Shown piece by piece: positions 1 through 11,353 of a stretch of 64,000 nucleotides of DNA. The stretch's first letter is position 1, and the number at the start of each line of letters is the position of its first letter. The notes under the pieces were generated by a model. The model ran no database searches and had not been told where the DNA came from. It worked only from the letters and a program-made list of their open reading frames with translations. Source of the stretch: a virus (lineage: Duplodnaviria > Caudoviricetes); IMG/VR virus record IMGVR_UViG_2556921664_000001, positions 8,766 to 72,765 of that record. One strand, given 5' to 3'. The translations under genes and the position numbers were made by a program.

Positions 1-193
1 TATAGGCCCTGTTTGTGAGAATCCTGCCAATACTGCAATGCCATGAGCTAATGCCAACAGCTTCTCCGACACAGTGCAATCCATATCCTTGAAGATAAAG
101 CTCATACATTCTTATGACCTTGGGGCCATCAACCGGATCTATTACCAGTTCCCCATTTTTGATGCAGTAACCAAATGGTATGTGTGAAATCAT
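1..193 (-). CDS. Recombinase-domain accessory protein, 5' part only (runs off the window)
   Basis: Not in the ORF track. ATG at 193 overlaps the TGA of the upstream recombinase (ATGA). Translates MISHIPFGYCIKNGELVIDP...RILTNRAY, with the P(F/Y)GY recombinase-domain start. Confidence 0.75.
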   Translation of the reverse strand, partial: MISHIPFGYCIKNGELVIDPVDGPKVIRMYELYLQGYGLHCVGEAVGISSWHCSIGRILTNRAY

Positions 194-1707
194 GCTCTCA
201 CCAGCCTTTCCCTTAATCTTAGTCCGCATTTCAGCTCAAATATGATTTCCTTTTTGGATAGCACAACTACCCTGTCTACTATTGCTGTAAAAATGTTATC
301 TGAAAACTCTTTCTGTACACCTTTCTTATCACATATGCCGATAAGTTCCCTAAGTGCTGTTTTACGGTCCACTTTACTTCTAATGTTTTCACCCACGCGA
401 ATCTTATCCCTGGCTTTACTTATTTTTATCAGCTCTGGTAATATTACCGAACTGCTGAGATTATGTTTTGCCTGCATCTCAAGAAGTAACGCCTCTTGGG
501 AATTCAGTCTATCCAGTTCAGATTCATTGTTCTCGCAGTGCGGAATCTCAGTGTTACTCAAGTCACTAAGCATTGTTTTTAAAACCCTGTTCTTGATACA
601 TATCAGCTTATTTACCATGGTACAGAATGCGTCCTTCAAGGCTGCCTCTTTTATTGCCTTCATAGAGCACTTTGATTTATCCCTTATGTGCTCCGGGCAG
701 GCCAGCAACGGATACTTAATGTCTCCAGTATGCTGGATTTTATGTCTGAGTACACTATTACATTCTCCGCAACATACTTTGCCGGAAAAAGCATATCTTT
801 TCTTATACTTGGTAGGGGCTTCTTTTGCCTCTTCCCGCAGTTCGGCGAGTTTCTGCAGTCTATCAAATACTTCCTGGGAAATAATTGCATCGTGATGCTT
901 CTCACAGTAATATGCATCCACATTATTTTTGTTCTTGTGGCGTTTCCCGTCACTGCCAATATAGGTGGACTGGAAGATTATATTTCCAGTATAAAAAATG
1001 TTGTTCTGTATCCTTTTTACTGTGGATGCGTCCCACTTTTTTCCTCTTGGGGATGGTATTGAAAGCTCATTTAACTTTTTTGCAATGGCATAACCTCCCA
1101 GTCCATCAAGTCCACATGTAAAGATTTTCTTCACTATTTCCGCCTTTTCATTATCCAATTTAATGACACCTTCTTCATATATGTAGCCGTAAGGCGGTGA
1201 AACCATCTTGTAAGTTCCATCCTGGAATCGTTTCTGAATTCCCCACTTTATATTCTCTGATAACGACTTTGATTCATTTTCAGCCAATGCACTTACAACT
1301 GACATATAGAGCTCTGCATCCATATCCTTTGTATTGATATTATCCTGCTCAAATTTTACATATATGCCTTTTACAGCAAGTGTCCTGACTGTTTCAAGAC
1401 AATCCAATGTATTTCTGGCAAATCTGCTGATTGACTTTGTGAGGATAAAATCTATCTTTCCTGCTATGGCATCACTAACCAACTGCTTAAAACCATCACG
1501 TCTGTTTATGGAGCGTCCGCTGATACCATCATCAGAATACACTCCTACAAAGGACCATTCCGGGTGTGCCCTAATGTACTCCTCATAGTGCTTCTTTTGG
1601 TTATCCAGGCTGGCCAACTGATCAGCGTCTGAGGTAGAAACTCTACAGTATGCAGCAACCTTCAGTTTATTCTCAGGTCTTTTATCAATAATTTTTATTG
1701 TAGGCAT
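190..1707 (-). CDS. Large serine recombinase (integrase)
   Basis: YCRVST catalytic Ser, DDGISG, KSISRFARN, PPYGY recombinase domain, CCGEC...C zinc ribbon, coiled coil. Start at 1707 chosen from the GGAGG RBS. Confidence 0.95.
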   Translation of the reverse strand: MPTIKIIDKRPENKLKVAAYCRVSTSDADQLASLDNQKKHYEEYIRAHPEWSFVGVYSDDGISGRSINRRDGFKQLVSDAIAGKIDFILTKSISRFARNTLDCLETVRTLAVKGIYVKFEQDNINTKDMDAELYMSVVSALAENESKSLSENIKWGIQKRFQDGTYKMVSPPYGYIYEEGVIKLDNEKAEIVKKIFTCGLDGLGGYAIAKKLNELSIPSPRGKKWDASTVKRIQNNIFYTGNIIFQSTYIGSDGKRHKNKNNVDAYYCEKHHDAIISQEVFDRLQKLAELREEAKEAPTKYKKRYAFSGKVCCGECNSVLRHKIQHTGDIKYPLLACPEHIRDKSKCSMKAIKEAALKDAFCTMVNKLICIKNRVLKTMLSDLSNTEIPHCENNESELDRLNSQEALLLEMQAKHNLSSSVILPELIKISKARDKIRVGENIRSKVDRKTALRELIGICDKKGVQKEFSDNIFTAIVDRVVVLSKKEIIFELKCGLRLRERLVRA

Positions 1708-1738
1708 TGGAACCACCTCCCTTCATCAGCATGAGATA

Positions 1739-1984: not shown

Positions 1985-1992
1985 CTCCTGAT

Positions 1993-2023
1993 TATCACTG
2001 GAGGTTCATTCCATTTTTGAGCA
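1993..2023 (-). promoter_or_regulatory. Bipartite motif TGCTCAA-N13-CTCCAGTGATA, copy 1, upstream of the recombinase operon
   Basis: Both arms and the 13-nt spacing are identical to the copies at 57314-57344 and 61447-61477; followed by an AGGAGG RBS. Confidence 0.7.
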
Positions 2024-2054
2024 TAAAAAATTACCGGGTTTAAAACCCGGATAT

Positions 2055-2083
2055 TTGCTTTATCCCACTATAAGGAGTATACT
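2055..2083 (+). promoter_or_regulatory. Sigma70-type promoter for the 133-aa ORF
   Basis: TTGCTT-17 nt-TATACT. Confidence 0.5.
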
Positions 2084-2119
2084 TGCTATTGTTTACTCAA
2101 TATTCACAAAGGATTTTTT

Positions 2120-2521
2120 ATGTATACCTATCTAAAACCAGTAGAGACCAAAAACGAGTTATTAACCCATACCAAAATTGTAGATATGGTACGCGATAAA
2201 TACGACATATGCTCAAGGCAAAATAGTAAATCCAGCGCACCCAAAGGACTAATTTCCGACCTGCTATACATATTCAACGATGAAGCTAATCGAGTATTTT
2301 ACACATGCTATGATTCATTCAACAATAACATCAAGCGCATATTTACAGGGATAGACAGCGTAGAAGCAGTATTTGACAAGATTGATACTCTCCTAAATGA
2401 AAATTCTGCCATATATGTGAGAACAAAAACTAAGGACCACCTTCTTACCCATGCTGAAGTTCTAATCACCCCTGAAATGCGGAAAACTTCCCCAATAATC
2501 GACATATACGATTTAGTATAA
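2120..2521 (+). CDS. Hypothetical protein (133 aa)
   Basis: ORF bracketed by a promoter and a terminator; no recognisable motif. Confidence 0.6.
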   Translation: MYTYLKPVETKNELLTHTKIVDMVRDKYDICSRQNSKSSAPKGLISDLLYIFNDEANRVFYTCYDSFNNNIKRIFTGIDSVEAVFDKIDTLLNENSAIYVRTKTKDHLLTHAEVLITPEMRKTSPIIDIYDLV

Positions 2522-2760
2522 AAAGAAGCCATCGAAGCATCATTGCAACGATGGCTATTTTAATACACGACAACTTTGTATCATTTGTTCTGAGCCCTTA
2601 CTCTGCTTGGCCTCAGAGTCCCATTTACATTACCTAATTGTAGCACCAAAAGCGGCAAGGCCAGCTGCCGCCCATCACTCCTGGTAGTGATGCCGATTAA
2701 GCAGAGAGGTAGTTCCCAGGCGCCAAGACTGCTTAATAGCCTGTTCCGGTTCAGGTGATA
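2521..2760 (-). ncRNA. Candidate structured non-coding RNA (~240 nt), family not recognised
   Basis: Five tandem hairpins (2600-2619, 2652-2671, 2673-2692, 2696-2737, 2740-2755), two complementary loop pairs, an upstream promoter and a downstream U-tailed terminator, and no long ORF. Confidence 0.6.
2527..2556. terminator. Bidirectional intrinsic terminator
   Basis: AGCCATCG/CGATGGCT stem with A/T tracts on both sides. Confidence 0.7.
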
Positions 2761-2765
2761 TGTAT

Positions 2766-2794
2766 ATTGTAGCAGATATTTAGTTTTAAGTTAA
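2766..2794 (-). promoter_or_regulatory. Extended -10 promoter for the candidate ncRNA
   Basis: Minus strand TTAACT-17 nt-TACAAT with TG at the extended -10 position. Confidence 0.55.
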
Positions 2795-2856: not shown

Positions 2857-3612
2857 ATGGCTTTTGATCCTGGTTTAAACATAGGAGATGTATTGAATAA
2901 TGCTGATATTGTCGAGAAGTTTAAGTGTAGCAATCAGAGCGGTATGCGTCGGTCAAAAACGACTAATACTTTGGTGCTAGTATCTGATTATACGAAGGGC
3001 ATTTATCACGATAAGTGGATCGGTGGAGTGCTGCACTATACAGGAATGGGGAAAAACGGAGATCAGGATATTAATTATGGTCAAAATGCCACACTTGCTA
3101 GATGTGATCATAATGGTGTTGATGTACACCTTTTTGAGGTTATCGATGAAGGTGAATACATTTATTGTGGAAGAGTAAAACTTGTAGATAAGCCATATAA
3201 TGAGATCCAGACAGGGGAAGATGGTAATCCAAGAAAAGTATGGATGTTTCCTATTAGACCAGTTCCCGATAACGACGTAAAGAAACCTCCAATGTTCGTA
3301 TTTGAGGATATGGAGGATTTCAAGAATAGAGGCAAAGACGTAGAGACTCGATATAGTAAGTATCTTGCTGATAAGAAGAAGAACGGAGGTAAGATTGCTT
3401 TTGTTCAGCCTGTTCCTCTAAAACCACAACCTAAACCGCCGGTGATCATACCAGCAGATATTGTTGGGAAGAAGGTCAGTCATAAATCTTTTGGAACAGG
3501 AGTTATTACAGGTACGGAAGTAGGAACTATTGTTGTCAATTTTGATAAGGTTGGCGAGAAGAAAATGGGATATGAAATTTGTGTGAAGAATAAGCTCCTG
3601 CAATTTCTATAG
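2857..3612 (+). CDS. ScoMcrA-like SRA (modified-cytosine reader) domain fused to a PcrA/UvrD-like C-terminal Tudor domain
   Basis: GMRRSKTTNTLVLVSD...YHDKW...LHYTGMGKNGDQ...VHLFE...YIYCG is SRA-type. A Pro-rich linker follows, then VGKKVSHKSFGTGVITG...VNFDKVGEKK. No HNH motif. Confidence 0.7.
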   Translation: MAFDPGLNIGDVLNNADIVEKFKCSNQSGMRRSKTTNTLVLVSDYTKGIYHDKWIGGVLHYTGMGKNGDQDINYGQNATLARCDHNGVDVHLFEVIDEGEYIYCGRVKLVDKPYNEIQTGEDGNPRKVWMFPIRPVPDNDVKKPPMFVFEDMEDFKNRGKDVETRYSKYLADKKKNGGKIAFVQPVPLKPQPKPPVIIPADIVGKKVSHKSFGTGVITGTEVGTIVVNFDKVGEKKMGYEICVKNKLLQFL

Positions 3613-8530: not shown

Positions 8531-11353
8531 TCATATATTTACAGCTTCACGCAGCTTTTCCCACACTTTAACCATTGCATACGTATCAAGACCACAGTAT
8601 TTAAGCAAATACCCACGATATTTTTCCAGTTCCTCTGGAGACATGTCAGCCATAGCTAGAAATGCATTTGATGCTTCAGTGCCATTATGAATACCTTCAA
8701 GATTGTGATAATCCAGCGCAGGATCATCCGGAAATAGTGCTGGTAACACAAGCTTGATAGAAGAACGTCCCTGCATTTCCTTGACATAATAATGCTCATT
8801 ATGAAACGGCATCTCAAGGTCTTGGATATGGTCATGGATATTCATCAAGTGTTCAGCCAAGTCAGGGAAAAGTTCCGCTAATTCCTTTACACGCCCTTGT
8901 TCGAATGATTTATGATATGCCAACGTACAACCATTCAACGTAATATCCATGCAAAGCTGCTCTGCTATCCCTCTACGTGGGTCTTCTCCAGGATATGCCA
9001 GATATTCCTTGTGTTTTAGTTCCCCTCCCTCCTGTTCAATATAGTGAAGGGAATACTGAAATACTATCTGTGCATAAGGCTTTGCATTATCATATTGTGG
9101 TACGGCCATTTGGCAAGATTCGAAATCAAGGAAATACAATGGATAGGATAACCCCACCAAAAATTTTTGAATCTCCTCTTTTTCAATATGCGGTGCCTTT
9201 TCAAAAAGCTCGTACTCTATCTGTATTTTCTTCACTCCTGCCTTATATAGCTGGTTGAAATCGATTATTCCCTGATGATAATATTGGATTTTTTTCTTCC
9301 ATTGTGGTGAGTTACCCGCGACATCAAATACATTAGGTTGTGGCAGGTGTCCGGTACAGTATTTCCAACAGTCGCACATTACACCATCTCTTTTGCAATG
9401 TTCATCAATGATATCTGGAGATTCGTCCTTTTGCTTCATGTACTCAGTAAATTTACCTAAATTAGCCTCCACCTCATCATGCTTGGCCTTTGCTTGTTCT
9501 GTAAAATCCACCACTGTGAAAAGATCCTGCAAATCAAGTTCTCCATGCCGCACATATTTATTGTTCAAATGCATTAAATAGACTCGATTCACCTCAAAAC
9601 CACACTTTTCCACCACAAAGCACTGGAAAGCTACATCATCATAATAATGATCCTTGATTTTCGCGGTACTCTTTACCTCATAAATATCCACTTTTTTCCC
9701 GCCAAGATGATGTAATATATCAACGCTACAGAAAAGATTGTCTACCGCAAAGGACGCCTCTGCAATGTACTCTTGCCCATTCTCCAAAAGTTCATTTGTC
9801 CGTGTAACCATGCTACCGAGATTGTTCTTATTAAAGGGCACAACAACACAACCATCAAATCGCTTTTGAGCCAGTATCCCCACCTCATTGCCAACAGCAA
9901 TACGTTCTTCAGAGGCCGGCGACTCATCGATAATCTCAGGCTTATTAGTTTTTAACCACAATGCCTTAGGGCACTGTGTCGCCATTACATACTTCGACTT
10001 GGAACAAATCAATGTAGATACCTCTGTAATCATATCGCCATATCCCAAATCTTTCATTTTTTGAATGAACTTTAAAAAATTTTTCTTAGTATTAGCTGCA
10101 CCCCATTCTCTGCAAATAACTACTGTAGTATTATCTCTCAGTACTATAGGATAATCTGTTAAAAATCTTGATTTATCCTTGTCTGGTACTTCAGAAAGAT
10201 TCTTTATCACGCCGTATGACCCCTGCAAATCCTTAGGAAATACTCTGCACAGTCCTTCATAATTAATATCAGGATGTTTTTCAACATAAAGGCCCACAAC
10301 AGATAATACAATTCTTCCTAATGCGGTTTGTTCACCATTAAATAGGTATCTTGAAGTTTTAGATTTGCCAGTTGGTTTATTATCATTATTTTTTTCTTTT
10401 TTAAATGATGTGCCATATTTTAGCGGCTTTGGTAGTTCATCTATGAATGAGCTGCTTACGTTGTTTACCATCGCCAGCTTATTAAATTGTTGCATATTTT
10501 CTTGTCCATACCTTGTATAAAACTGCTGACGCACATAATTTATTACATCAGGATTTTCACCAATCAGATAATTTGAGTTTCCACTTTTCGGGACAAGGAA
10601 ATAATTTAACGGGTCACAAAAACGTAGAAAATGTGCCTTGACAATATTCTTTTCTTCATCAGTCCAAATATCTGGGAGACGTCGTACATGATCTTCATTT
10701 TCTATCCAATCCGCCACCACCCCTCTAGGAAATAATTTATCACTTAAAGCTTCTGGCAAATAGAAATCATCACTTCTATGGTTATTTTCCTTTAAACTAG
10801 CAATATGTGCCAAATACCAACCTTTCCCATTTAAAATCCCCGTTTCTCTAGGATGTCCAAGAAATTGATTTTTGTTGGCTATCAACGCTTCTTCACTTTT
10901 TTTGCCATTATCATAGTGCATTGGATACATATTATCATTTAATAATTTAGCAAATTCCTCTGCTGTGGGAACAATGCCCTTGTGAGCCATATTATAAATC
11001 TCATGTACCTCAAAATTGCTGGCAAACACGTAGGAGCAACCGTCAGCCATAACAGTTTTTGCAGCGCGCCTATTTTTATACGGTCTTAGCCCGCGCTGTT
11101 CCCAATTCTTATTATTTCCGCCTTCATATTTTCTTATCAAAAATACCGCATCCGACCGGTCAATATACTCAACCAACATTTTGTGCCAAGCAATAGCGTA
11201 TTCGCTGTCTATTAGTGTAGGTTTAATACATTTCTCATACAATTCAGTAACGGTTTTTACTTCTTCATATTCTGGTAATGAAATTTCAAAATCAATTATC
11301 TTCTTTTCATTATGCCTTGAAAAATAATCTTGAATTCCTGTAAAAATTGCCAT
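8531..11353 (-). CDS. Multi-domain fusion: possible His-Me/HNH-like N-terminal domain, restriction-associated middle domain, and DUF2779-type PD-(D/E)xK plus RNase H-like nuclease
   Basis: The C-terminal ~490 aa start SKSKYVMATQCPKALWL and contain CSVDILH...IYEVKST (Cas4-like), a Cys cluster and YFLDFE...DTYAM. The N-terminus has WYLAHI...DPLNYFLVPK. Confidence 0.75.
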   Translation of the reverse strand: MAIFTGIQDYFSRHNEKKIIDFEISLPEYEEVKTVTELYEKCIKPTLIDSEYAIAWHKMLVEYIDRSDAVFLIRKYEGGNNKNWEQRGLRPYKNRRAAKTVMADGCSYVFASNFEVHEIYNMAHKGIVPTAEEFAKLLNDNMYPMHYDNGKKSEEALIANKNQFLGHPRETGILNGKGWYLAHIASLKENNHRSDDFYLPEALSDKLFPRGVVADWIENEDHVRRLPDIWTDEEKNIVKAHFLRFCDPLNYFLVPKSGNSNYLIGENPDVINYVRQQFYTRYGQENMQQFNKLAMVNNVSSSFIDELPKPLKYGTSFKKEKNNDNKPTGKSKTSRYLFNGEQTALGRIVLSVVGLYVEKHPDINYEGLCRVFPKDLQGSYGVIKNLSEVPDKDKSRFLTDYPIVLRDNTTVVICREWGAANTKKNFLKFIQKMKDLGYGDMITEVSTLICSKSKYVMATQCPKALWLKTNKPEIIDESPASEERIAVGNEVGILAQKRFDGCVVVPFNKNNLGSMVTRTNELLENGQEYIAEASFAVDNLFCSVDILHHLGGKKVDIYEVKSTAKIKDHYYDDVAFQCFVVEKCGFEVNRVYLMHLNNKYVRHGELDLQDLFTVVDFTEQAKAKHDEVEANLGKFTEYMKQKDESPDIIDEHCKRDGVMCDCWKYCTGHLPQPNVFDVAGNSPQWKKKIQYYHQGIIDFNQLYKAGVKKIQIEYELFEKAPHIEKEEIQKFLVGLSYPLYFLDFESCQMAVPQYDNAKPYAQIVFQYSLHYIEQEGGELKHKEYLAYPGEDPRRGIAEQLCMDITLNGCTLAYHKSFEQGRVKELAELFPDLAEHLMNIHDHIQDLEMPFHNEHYYVKEMQGRSSIKLVLPALFPDDPALDYHNLEGIHNGTEASNAFLAMADMSPEELEKYRGYLLKYCGLDTYAMVKVWEKLREAVNI

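Follow-up and report, generated by a model that had tools for sequence, protein, structure and literature searches.

Small RNA genes such as DicF, IpeX and AgvB/AsxR are found in enterobacterial prophages as self-contained promoter-RNA-terminator units within an accessory region. They are distributed sporadically among strains and occur in multiple copies where there are multiple prophages. The RNA described here, encoded on the minus strand of a 64,000-nt stretch of tailed-phage DNA (IMG/VR record IMGVR_UViG_2556921664_000001, positions 8,766 to 72,765; hereafter the window), resembles them in each of these respects. However, it is related to them neither in sequence nor through Rfam, its closed four-way junction gives it much more structure than they have, neither a target nor a seed of the Hfq type can be discerned, and its host is a Negativicute.

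The C4 RNA of phages P1 and P7 and the CI RNA of P4 provide a second parallel, being small structured phage RNAs with a constitutive promoter, a position at the head of a transcription unit, and loops that vary from element to element. The window RNA appears similar on all four counts, but it gives no match to the Rfam C4 family, has no complementary sites downstream, is larger and folds differently. A third parallel is the phi29-type pRNA: each is a phage RNA some 120-170 nt long whose ends pair, whose helices meet at a junction and which has two loops complementary to each other. Here the differences are that Rfam Phage_pRNA is not matched, that the carrier is not phi29-like but a tailed phage of temperate lifestyle, with an integrase and a large terminase, and that the RNA is also found outside phages.

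Two classes of cis-acting RNA are also comparable. In purine-riboswitch-type aptamers, as in the window RNA, a junction is closed by P1 and the loops of neighbouring helices are able to pair; the window RNA nevertheless has four helices rather than three, lacks a conserved downstream gene or expression platform, and is a stand-alone gene with a terminator. The HK022 put and EAR elements are structured RNAs lying right past a promoter with terminators and operons downstream, an arrangement also seen here, but no similarity in sequence or structure was shown, and many copies of the present RNA stop at a terminator of their own, beyond which there is nothing for read-through to reach.

To our knowledge, hardly any work has been done on structured RNAs from temperate phages of anaerobic bacteria in the gut and rumen. 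The locus analysed here is a clean case, with clear transcription signals, a well-defined four-way junction, a likely loop-loop contact and diverged copies in one genome.

Transcription signals of the window copy

An initial annotation, made from the DNA letters alone, had described an independently transcribed, compactly folded non-coding RNA on the minus strand, and this description is supported by homologues, conservation of the fold, and the predicted promoter and terminator (Table 1). The promoter it named (TTAACT, a 17-nt spacer, then TACAAT) is present, and in a promoter scan the TG-extended TACAAT (2771-2766) was the sole site in the region with TG ahead of the second hexamer. In all copies with an intact 5' end, a TGnTAnAAT box is conserved 6-8 nt upstream of AUAUCACC, at a constant distance, and the sequence upstream of this -10 box falls into at least three unrelated classes, one of them with a consensus TTGACA. 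The RNA likely starts at an A at about 2761-2759.

The U-tailed terminator of the initial annotation was also found, its stem being followed by UCUUUUU. In the window this terminator is common to the RNA and the convergent 133-aa ORF, which ends at 2521, and it may act bidirectionally; a short-form copy elsewhere (L028) precedes the same terminator. Canonical intrinsic terminators lie 20-90 nt past the RNA core in six lineages, each with a different sequence. In four contexts the RNA leads to a co-oriented small gene without an intervening terminator.

The initial annotation was also right that no long ORF is present, since none of at least 30 aa lies within or antisense to 2574-2794. A coding reading was rejected: the only in-frame ORF has 11 codons, and its peptide is not conserved between the consensus and L016. 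ARAGORN found no tRNA- or tmRNA-like gene in the window. Folded as a single sequence, the minus strand gives -76.8 kcal/mol (z -1.65), with 14 of 200 shuffles equally stable, and the plus strand gives a z of -2.52. Folding energy alone is therefore unremarkable and the single-sequence observation does not go beyond chance; it is the homologues that establish the feature as real.

Table 1. Features of the RNA locus, the surrounding prophage and the Rpn cassette. Coordinates are those of the window unless a locus or contig is named.
Feature	Position	Strand	Description
RNA promoter	2766..2794	minus	-35-like TTAACT 2794-2789, 17-nt spacer, extended -10 TGCTACAAT 2774-2766
Core RNA module, four-way junction	2639..2763	minus	covariance model, pair counts, blastn boundaries
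P1 5' strand	2759-2753	minus	window copy
P2	2737-2729 / 2704-2696	minus	ATTAAGCAG/CTGCTTAAT; 9 bp; 25-nt loop with CCUGG 2720-2716
P3	2692-2686 / 2679-2673	minus	CATCACT/AGTGATG; 7 bp; hexaloop ACCAGG 2685-2680
P4	2672-2666 / 2657-2651	minus	GCGGCA/TGCCGC; 7 bp, G+C-rich
Long-form 3' tail	2566..2650	minus	contains hairpin 5 and AGGCCA 2613-2608
Intrinsic terminator	2519..2556	minus	stem AGCCAUCG / CGAUGGCU (2556-2549 / 2534-2527), then UCUUUUUA; fold and inverted repeat I3
133-aa ORF	2120-2521	plus	real gene, convergent with the RNA; 47% identical to the ORF beside L028
DNA polymerase and helicase	59-54 kb	minus	PHROG
Large terminase	43-41.6 kb	minus	PHROG
Portal, major head, tape measure	34.5-32 kb	minus	PHROG
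Endolysin	25.7-25.2 kb	minus	PHROG
Rpn cassette	L013:1388-2240 (G012); G000 contig C18:7319-8170		remnants L002, L019, L027, G000 C3:186838-186939

Boundaries and distribution of the RNA family

Homologues were collected with blastn, a degenerate pattern and a covariance model, as the initial annotation had proposed for BLASTn. The search yielded 15 distinct copies of a 140-bp unit, made up of the extended -10 box and a 128-nt RNA, all of them in Anaerovibrio (7 of 25 genomes) or on metagenome contigs (nine). Pairwise identity among the 15 sequences is 65-99%, with L016 the most divergent copy at 74%, and the window core matches the covariance model with 139 bits (E 7e-36). When the 5-kb neighbourhoods were compared all against all by blastn, nearly all pairs proved alike only from -12 to +125/128 relative to the RNA start. 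The source genome (G000; 2.68 Mb, 31 contigs) has three copies, the two besides that of the window matching its 5' ~130 nt at 87-89% identity, and also a fragment consisting of the promoter and first 23 nt only. Since several copies are truncated or decaying (L003, L004, L027, L028 and L035), selection has not been uniform; L035, in genome G016, is a decayed remnant without P2 that matches the model weakly (24.9 bits).

No copy was found by blastn in 39 other genera of the family, by the covariance model in about 270 genomes outside the genus (150 of the class, 140 of the family), by pattern scans of IMG/VR, or by blastn against phage and plasmid collections. The initial annotation could place the RNA in no known riboswitch or ribozyme consensus, and Rfam 15 agrees: there was no match at the gathering score across the 64-kb window, and none even at E<=10 in 2400-2900 with permissive filters. 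Literature searches on small RNAs of Anaerovibrio and Selenomonadaceae, on serine recombinases with structured RNAs, and on prophage moron small RNAs turned up no description of this RNA. Judged by these searches, the RNA family is a new, previously uncatalogued one of a familiar kind, the structured small RNAs of phages and mobile elements. Its range, one genus of rumen bacteria, limits its immediate impact.

A conserved four-way junction

The fold, consisting of P1 to P4 and a CCUGG:CCAGG pseudoknot, was tested on ten canonical copies (alignment A3). In the family as a whole, P1 pairs AUCACCU at the 5' end of the RNA with GGGUGAU at its 3' end; the 3' strand is degenerate in the window copy, where it is either GGUG (2647-2644) or AGGUAAUGU (2635-2627). 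Standard pairs occupy 95.7% of 369 cells across the ten copies, and five pairs have changed on both sides against a shuffle mean of 0.8, with none of 500 shuffles as good on any measure. These two-sided changes fall in P1 (C-G to A-U, L002), P2 (three pairs, L008 and L009) and P4 (G-C to A-U, L009). Sliding the 3' partners as a control reduced pairing to 35-63%. The alignment also distinguishes the strands: there are 24 G-U cells, and pairing is 95.7% on this strand and 90.8% on the opposite one. The compensatory changes that the initial annotation had suggested looking for in homologues are thus present, and the helices are maintained through compensatory and wobble changes on one strand, in a set of low diversity. 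Because the effective sequence number is 1.23 and most of the covariation comes from just three or four copies that are divergent or decaying, we call the structural case good rather than overwhelming.

All five hairpins listed in the initial annotation can be drawn in the sequence, but only the second, third and fourth, which correspond to P2, P3 and P4, are conserved; the first and fifth are not, and the closing helix P1, which has comparative backing, had been missed. Hairpin 1 (CCUG/CAGG) shares its CCU with P1, and none of its pairs has changed on both sides. It is lost in the most divergent copies, with breaks in L009, L026 and L002; the substitution that disrupts it in L002 has a compensating partner in P1.

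The least variable parts of the RNA are P3, the P3 loop and CCUGG, and the variable positions cluster in a segment of the P2 loop (GAAC, CUUUU or GUAU) and in the P4 loop. Both of the complementary loop pairs described initially exist, but they differ in standing: CCUGG:CCAGG is invariant in 15 of 17 aligned rows, whereas UGGCCU:AGGCCA belongs to the long form only (see below). In L003 a C-to-U change on each side of CCUGG:CCAGG turns both pairs into G-U, in L014 a single change breaks one base pair, and no copy has a swap from one Watson-Crick pair to another. The invariance of CCUGG:CCAGG agrees with a loop-loop contact, short of proof. By a rough count, two complementary loop pairs would arise by chance in an RNA of this size at a rate of a few percent, and both loop motifs are halves of short palindromes (CCWGG and GGCC).

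The compact fold, in which several helices meet at a junction and two loops may make a tertiary contact, might suggest a new class of self-cleaving ribozyme or other catalytic RNA. The gene is moreover multi-copy and lies beside integrases in phage DNA, a typical neighbourhood of hammerhead, twister and hatchet ribozymes. However, no Rfam 15 ribozyme is matched even at E<=10, and the junction strands, where a catalytic core usually resides, vary among copies (J1/2 in L016, for example), the invariant part being helix P3. From the sequence comparisons we regard catalysis as very improbable.

The unit could instead function mainly as DNA, for instance as an operator, as a MITE-like unit or as a site where recombination or insertion is frequent, and its RNA would then have no role. 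Its homology boundaries are sharp, the P1 strands amount to terminal inverted repeats, breakpoints recur at about +24 (L004, L021/L028) and past P4, and IS elements, Rpn cassettes and recombinase modules have inserted just downstream. This reading does not account for the -10 box being retained on unrelated upstream sequence, for two-sided changes in the internal helices and strand-specific tolerance of G-U, or for a terminator specific to each lineage, and neither a transposase nor a target-site duplication accompanies the unit; we consider it scarcely probable. Because the -10 box is kept, the terminators are lineage-specific and G-U pairs are tolerated on one strand, we conclude that this is a stand-alone RNA gene of the minus strand. 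Our confidence in the gene family and its fold is high.

The long form and its tail

The window copy is a long form of the RNA, in which a weakened P1 is followed by an additional tail of ~85 nt and then the terminator. The unit of about 240 nt originally outlined is accordingly a composite, comprising the conserved 128-nt core and a tail found in only three copies. The three sites in the genus are the window, G009 (L018/L055) and a 5'-truncated copy in G012 (L056), and each tail is upstream of a serine-recombinase operon. Between the window and L018 (Anaerovibrio sp. JC8), the sequence past P4 departs from the short form, the tail extends to +206 with 92.7% identity, and the terminators after the tail are unrelated. 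The truncated G012 copy and a complete short-form copy 930 bp upstream of it are separated by an Rpn-type gene.

Hairpin 5 (ACUCUG/CAGAGU), contained in the tail, has two mismatches in each of the other two long-form copies. An alternative pairing within the tail, UCUGAG (2617-2612) with CUCAGA (2594-2589), is better conserved. The second loop pair, UGGCCU (2663-2658) with AGGCCA (2613-2608), is present in the three long-form copies only, the G012 copy having AGGUCA for AGGCCA so that pairing is retained by wobble.

The convergent 133-aa ORF

The 133-aa ORF is the phage version, diverged to 30-36% identity, of a gene family (L043-L053) that belongs to the Anaerovibrio core. The family has no match in Pfam, PHROG, PADLOC or PDB, and its chromosomal members lie between a gene for a 363-aa membrane protein and a ~440-aa gene. 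In the window, the ORF forms a cassette between copies of a 13-nt direct repeat (2017-2029 and 2512-2524).

The initial annotation had suggested that the RNA might be an antitoxin for this ORF, and a related possibility is an antisense regulator of it. L028 offers some encouragement, having the same arrangement of RNA, common terminator and convergent ORF even though the proteins are only 47% identical. The distribution of the two genes tells against the idea: the ORF family is found in 11 of 25 genomes, five of which lack the RNA, and ten of its 11 other loci occupy the conserved chromosomal context with no model match in the 2-3.4 kb around each. Conversely, most RNA copies have no 133-aa ORF, and the L028 copy, next to an intact ORF, lacks both its promoter and its 5' end. 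The overlap between RNA and ORF is confined to the terminator hairpin, and there are neither type III-like tandem repeats nor a type I-like small hydrophobic ORF. A link of either kind is therefore extremely improbable, and the antitoxin suggestion was dropped.

The toxin-antitoxin classes were also considered individually. A type III (ToxI-like) RNA was rejected because 1900-2900 contains no tandem or direct repeat units and the neighbouring ORF is convergent, and the neighbours of the RNA have no ToxN-type match in Pfam, PADLOC or PDB. A type I RNA was rejected for want of an ORF of at least 30 aa within or antisense to 2574-2794, and because most of the 133-aa family occurs without the RNA.

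Prophage and mobile-element context

PHROG matches identify the window as a prophage read on the minus strand (Table 1). Between the endolysin gene and the RNA are ~20 kb of cargo resembling defence genes, among them those for an IetA-like AAA ATPase and an SRA-like protein. On the far side of the RNA are a SHOCT gene and a large serine recombinase of 508 aa, followed on the same contig by two further serine recombinases. The order of endolysin, RNA, small genes and serine recombinase is repeated at L016, and another copy in the source genome is at the end of a second prophage, adjoining an HNH gene and tRNA-Gly/Cys. Other copies lie upstream of tyrosine-integrase fragments, of an Rpn-type PDDEXK_2 gene or its 3' remnants (four), or of IS transposases (two). 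Several copies have just upstream of them genes that, from their translations, we take to be DUF262-like, AAA ATPase and YhcG-like defence types. No protein gene is a constant neighbour of the RNA copies. The gene thus has the attributes of a prophage moron: its own promoter and terminator, an accessory location, and sporadic occurrence (7 of 25 genomes). In the fragmented G000 assembly, no displaced 3' fragment such as would mark the RNA gene as an attB was seen at the far end of the element.

A guide RNA, which the initial annotation had also raised, finds no footing in this context, as there is no reverse transcriptase, TnpB-type or IS110-type gene in the genome, no CRISPR array in a crude scan and no constant protein neighbour. 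An omega RNA, bridge RNA or retron was rejected on the lack of RVT_1, TnpB zinc-ribbon and DEDD_Tnp_IS110 matches in the 100%-complete genome. A CRISPR RNA, tracrRNA or RNA anti-CRISPR was rejected on a crude k-mer repeat scan of G000, which found no CRISPR-like array, and a 36-40-nt repeat near one RNA copy proved to be a dispersed REP-like hairpin.

The main rival to an independent RNA is a cis-acting 5' leader, serving as a transcript stabiliser or as a processive antiterminator similar to HK022 put or EAR, by which the recombinase module or small cargo genes downstream would be expressed. P1 begins only a few nucleotides from the predicted start, and a co-oriented gene follows in about eight of ten independent contexts, with no terminator ahead of it in L016, L012/L020 and the Rpn-remnant copies. 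In the window and at L013, the terminators between the RNA and the SHOCT-recombinase operon are possible antiterminator targets. On the other hand, the genes found downstream are not related to one another, being serine recombinases, a tyrosine-integrase fragment, Rpn, IS transposases and unknowns. A canonical terminator stands directly past the RNA in six lineages, the recombinase operon has a promoter-like leader of its own, and the gene that follows the RNA runs convergently to it in the window and L028. A leader function therefore seems unlikely, and a recognised riboswitch or cis-leader class was rejected because the downstream genes are unrelated and the plain terminators of those six lineages leave no gene to control.

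In a further reading, the RNA would be a functional component of the phage recombination or lysogeny machinery: a cofactor or regulator of the adjacent large-serine-recombinase module, a new catalytic RNA, or a former of oligomers through the CCUGG/CCAGG loops. We give this reading little credence; were it true, the RNA would represent a new class of phage RNA, not an ordinary regulatory small RNA.

Proposed role of the RNA

The comparisons above establish a gene family with a defined fold, transcription signals and phage context, that is, an autonomous, strongly promoted RNA gene. Our preferred, though tentative, explanation from these sequence data is that it encodes a prophage 'moron' RNA of a new family, constitutively expressed and acting through a partner. 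Temperate phages and other integrative Anaerovibrio elements bear the gene at their cargo/recombinase end as a self-contained promoter-gene-terminator unit. According to this proposal, transcription would run along the minus strand from the extended -10 promoter of the gene itself to the intrinsic terminator; the RNA would be made constitutively in the lysogen and would act in trans as a folded molecule. Within the fold, the ACCAGG loop of P3 could pair with CCUGG of the P2 loop, and a sequence-specific partner, either a protein or another macromolecule, would most likely recognise the P3 hairpin together with the loop-loop core. Action as a folded RNA with a partner is put forward with similar reserve.

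Alternatively, the RNA might regulate or confer immunity by base pairing, as do P1 C4, P4 CI and DicF-like RNAs, with its variable loops directed phage-specifically at phage or host mRNAs. The grouping of variable positions in the P2-loop segment and the P4 loop would fit such a role, as would the presence of diverged paralogues in one genome, each in a different element, and on our reading of the sequence the pyrimidine-rich ACCUCUCU could pair with ribosome-binding sites. The 64-kb window, however, holds no complement to the RNA of 13 nt or more elsewhere, only 11-12-mers at chance level. An antisense interaction with the leader of the recombinase operon was rejected because its duplex energies are no better than those of shuffled targets. 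Conservation, moreover, peaks in the helices and not in single strands. Because conservation is greatest in a helix whose sequence is fixed (P3), in its loop and in the partner of that loop, recognition by a partner is favoured over seed-type antisense action, and long antisense pairing is the less likely of the two; base pairing as the general mode of action appears improbable.

Should the RNA have a specific partner, as we favour, it could expose a new way in which prophages act on their host or on competing phages. In prophages its position is fixed, with the defence genes of the cargo on one side and the integrase module on the other, and the conserved 140-bp unit may double as a homology anchor for the swapping of cargo.

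Recombinase module, Rpn cassettes and other neighbouring elements

The recombinase module (L041; window 190-1716 with G000:C1:1-9100) encodes large serine recombinases of 508, 519 and 622 aa and a 149-aa recombinase-domain ORF, all in one orientation. They are interspersed with an HTH gene, a 358-aa ATPase-like gene and a 160-aa gene, and G012 (L013) is arranged alike. A conserved leader precedes the SHOCT/serine-recombinase operon in the window (1985-2110, minus strand), L013, L018, L012 and L020. It comprises a promoter-like TATAAT, then a terminator hairpin CCGGGTTTTAAACCCGG (2034-2050), then a CCUCC...GGAGG hairpin that would occlude the ribosome-binding site, and from this composition it looks like an attenuator of recombinase expression. 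On the other side of the RNA, the divergent 251-aa neighbour (2857-3612, plus strand) matches phrog_15103 over residues 9-138 (E 1e-36); its other matches are weak, to type IV restriction (SRA-like) and PcrA-Tudor proteins, and it lies beside no other RNA copy.

The Rpn-type PDDEXK_2 gene is a mobile cassette of ~850 bp with sharp ends, extending from ~10 nt before its ATG to its own terminator (Table 1). It is 95% identical at two unrelated sites, in both of which a hairpin with a T run immediately precedes it. Rpn remnants that lack the 5' part of the gene are fused to three RNA copies; these remnants retain only a C-terminal ORF of ~50 codons with its own ribosome-binding site and presumably recall the small intragenic Rpn antitoxin proteins. 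The dispersed REP-like hairpin repeat (GTTGAATGACCCGCCAAATTCAGCGGGTCGTATTGG; 36-40 nt) occurs at L017:6240-6279 and at four L021 sites, with irregular spacing, in G012 and a metagenome contig.

At L021:33-1100 and L028, a 5'-truncated RNA copy abuts a divergent pair of genes encoding 306 and 101 aa, which from their translations we assume to be cas1-cas2-like; neither cas9 nor an array is within reach of the pair. The truncations there and at L004:1057-1100 (G000 C6) are independent breaks at about +24 to +27 of the RNA gene, past a partly palindromic CCTGAACCGGAACAGG. The left part is kept in one rearrangement and the right part in the other, and the site is possibly a recombination hot spot.
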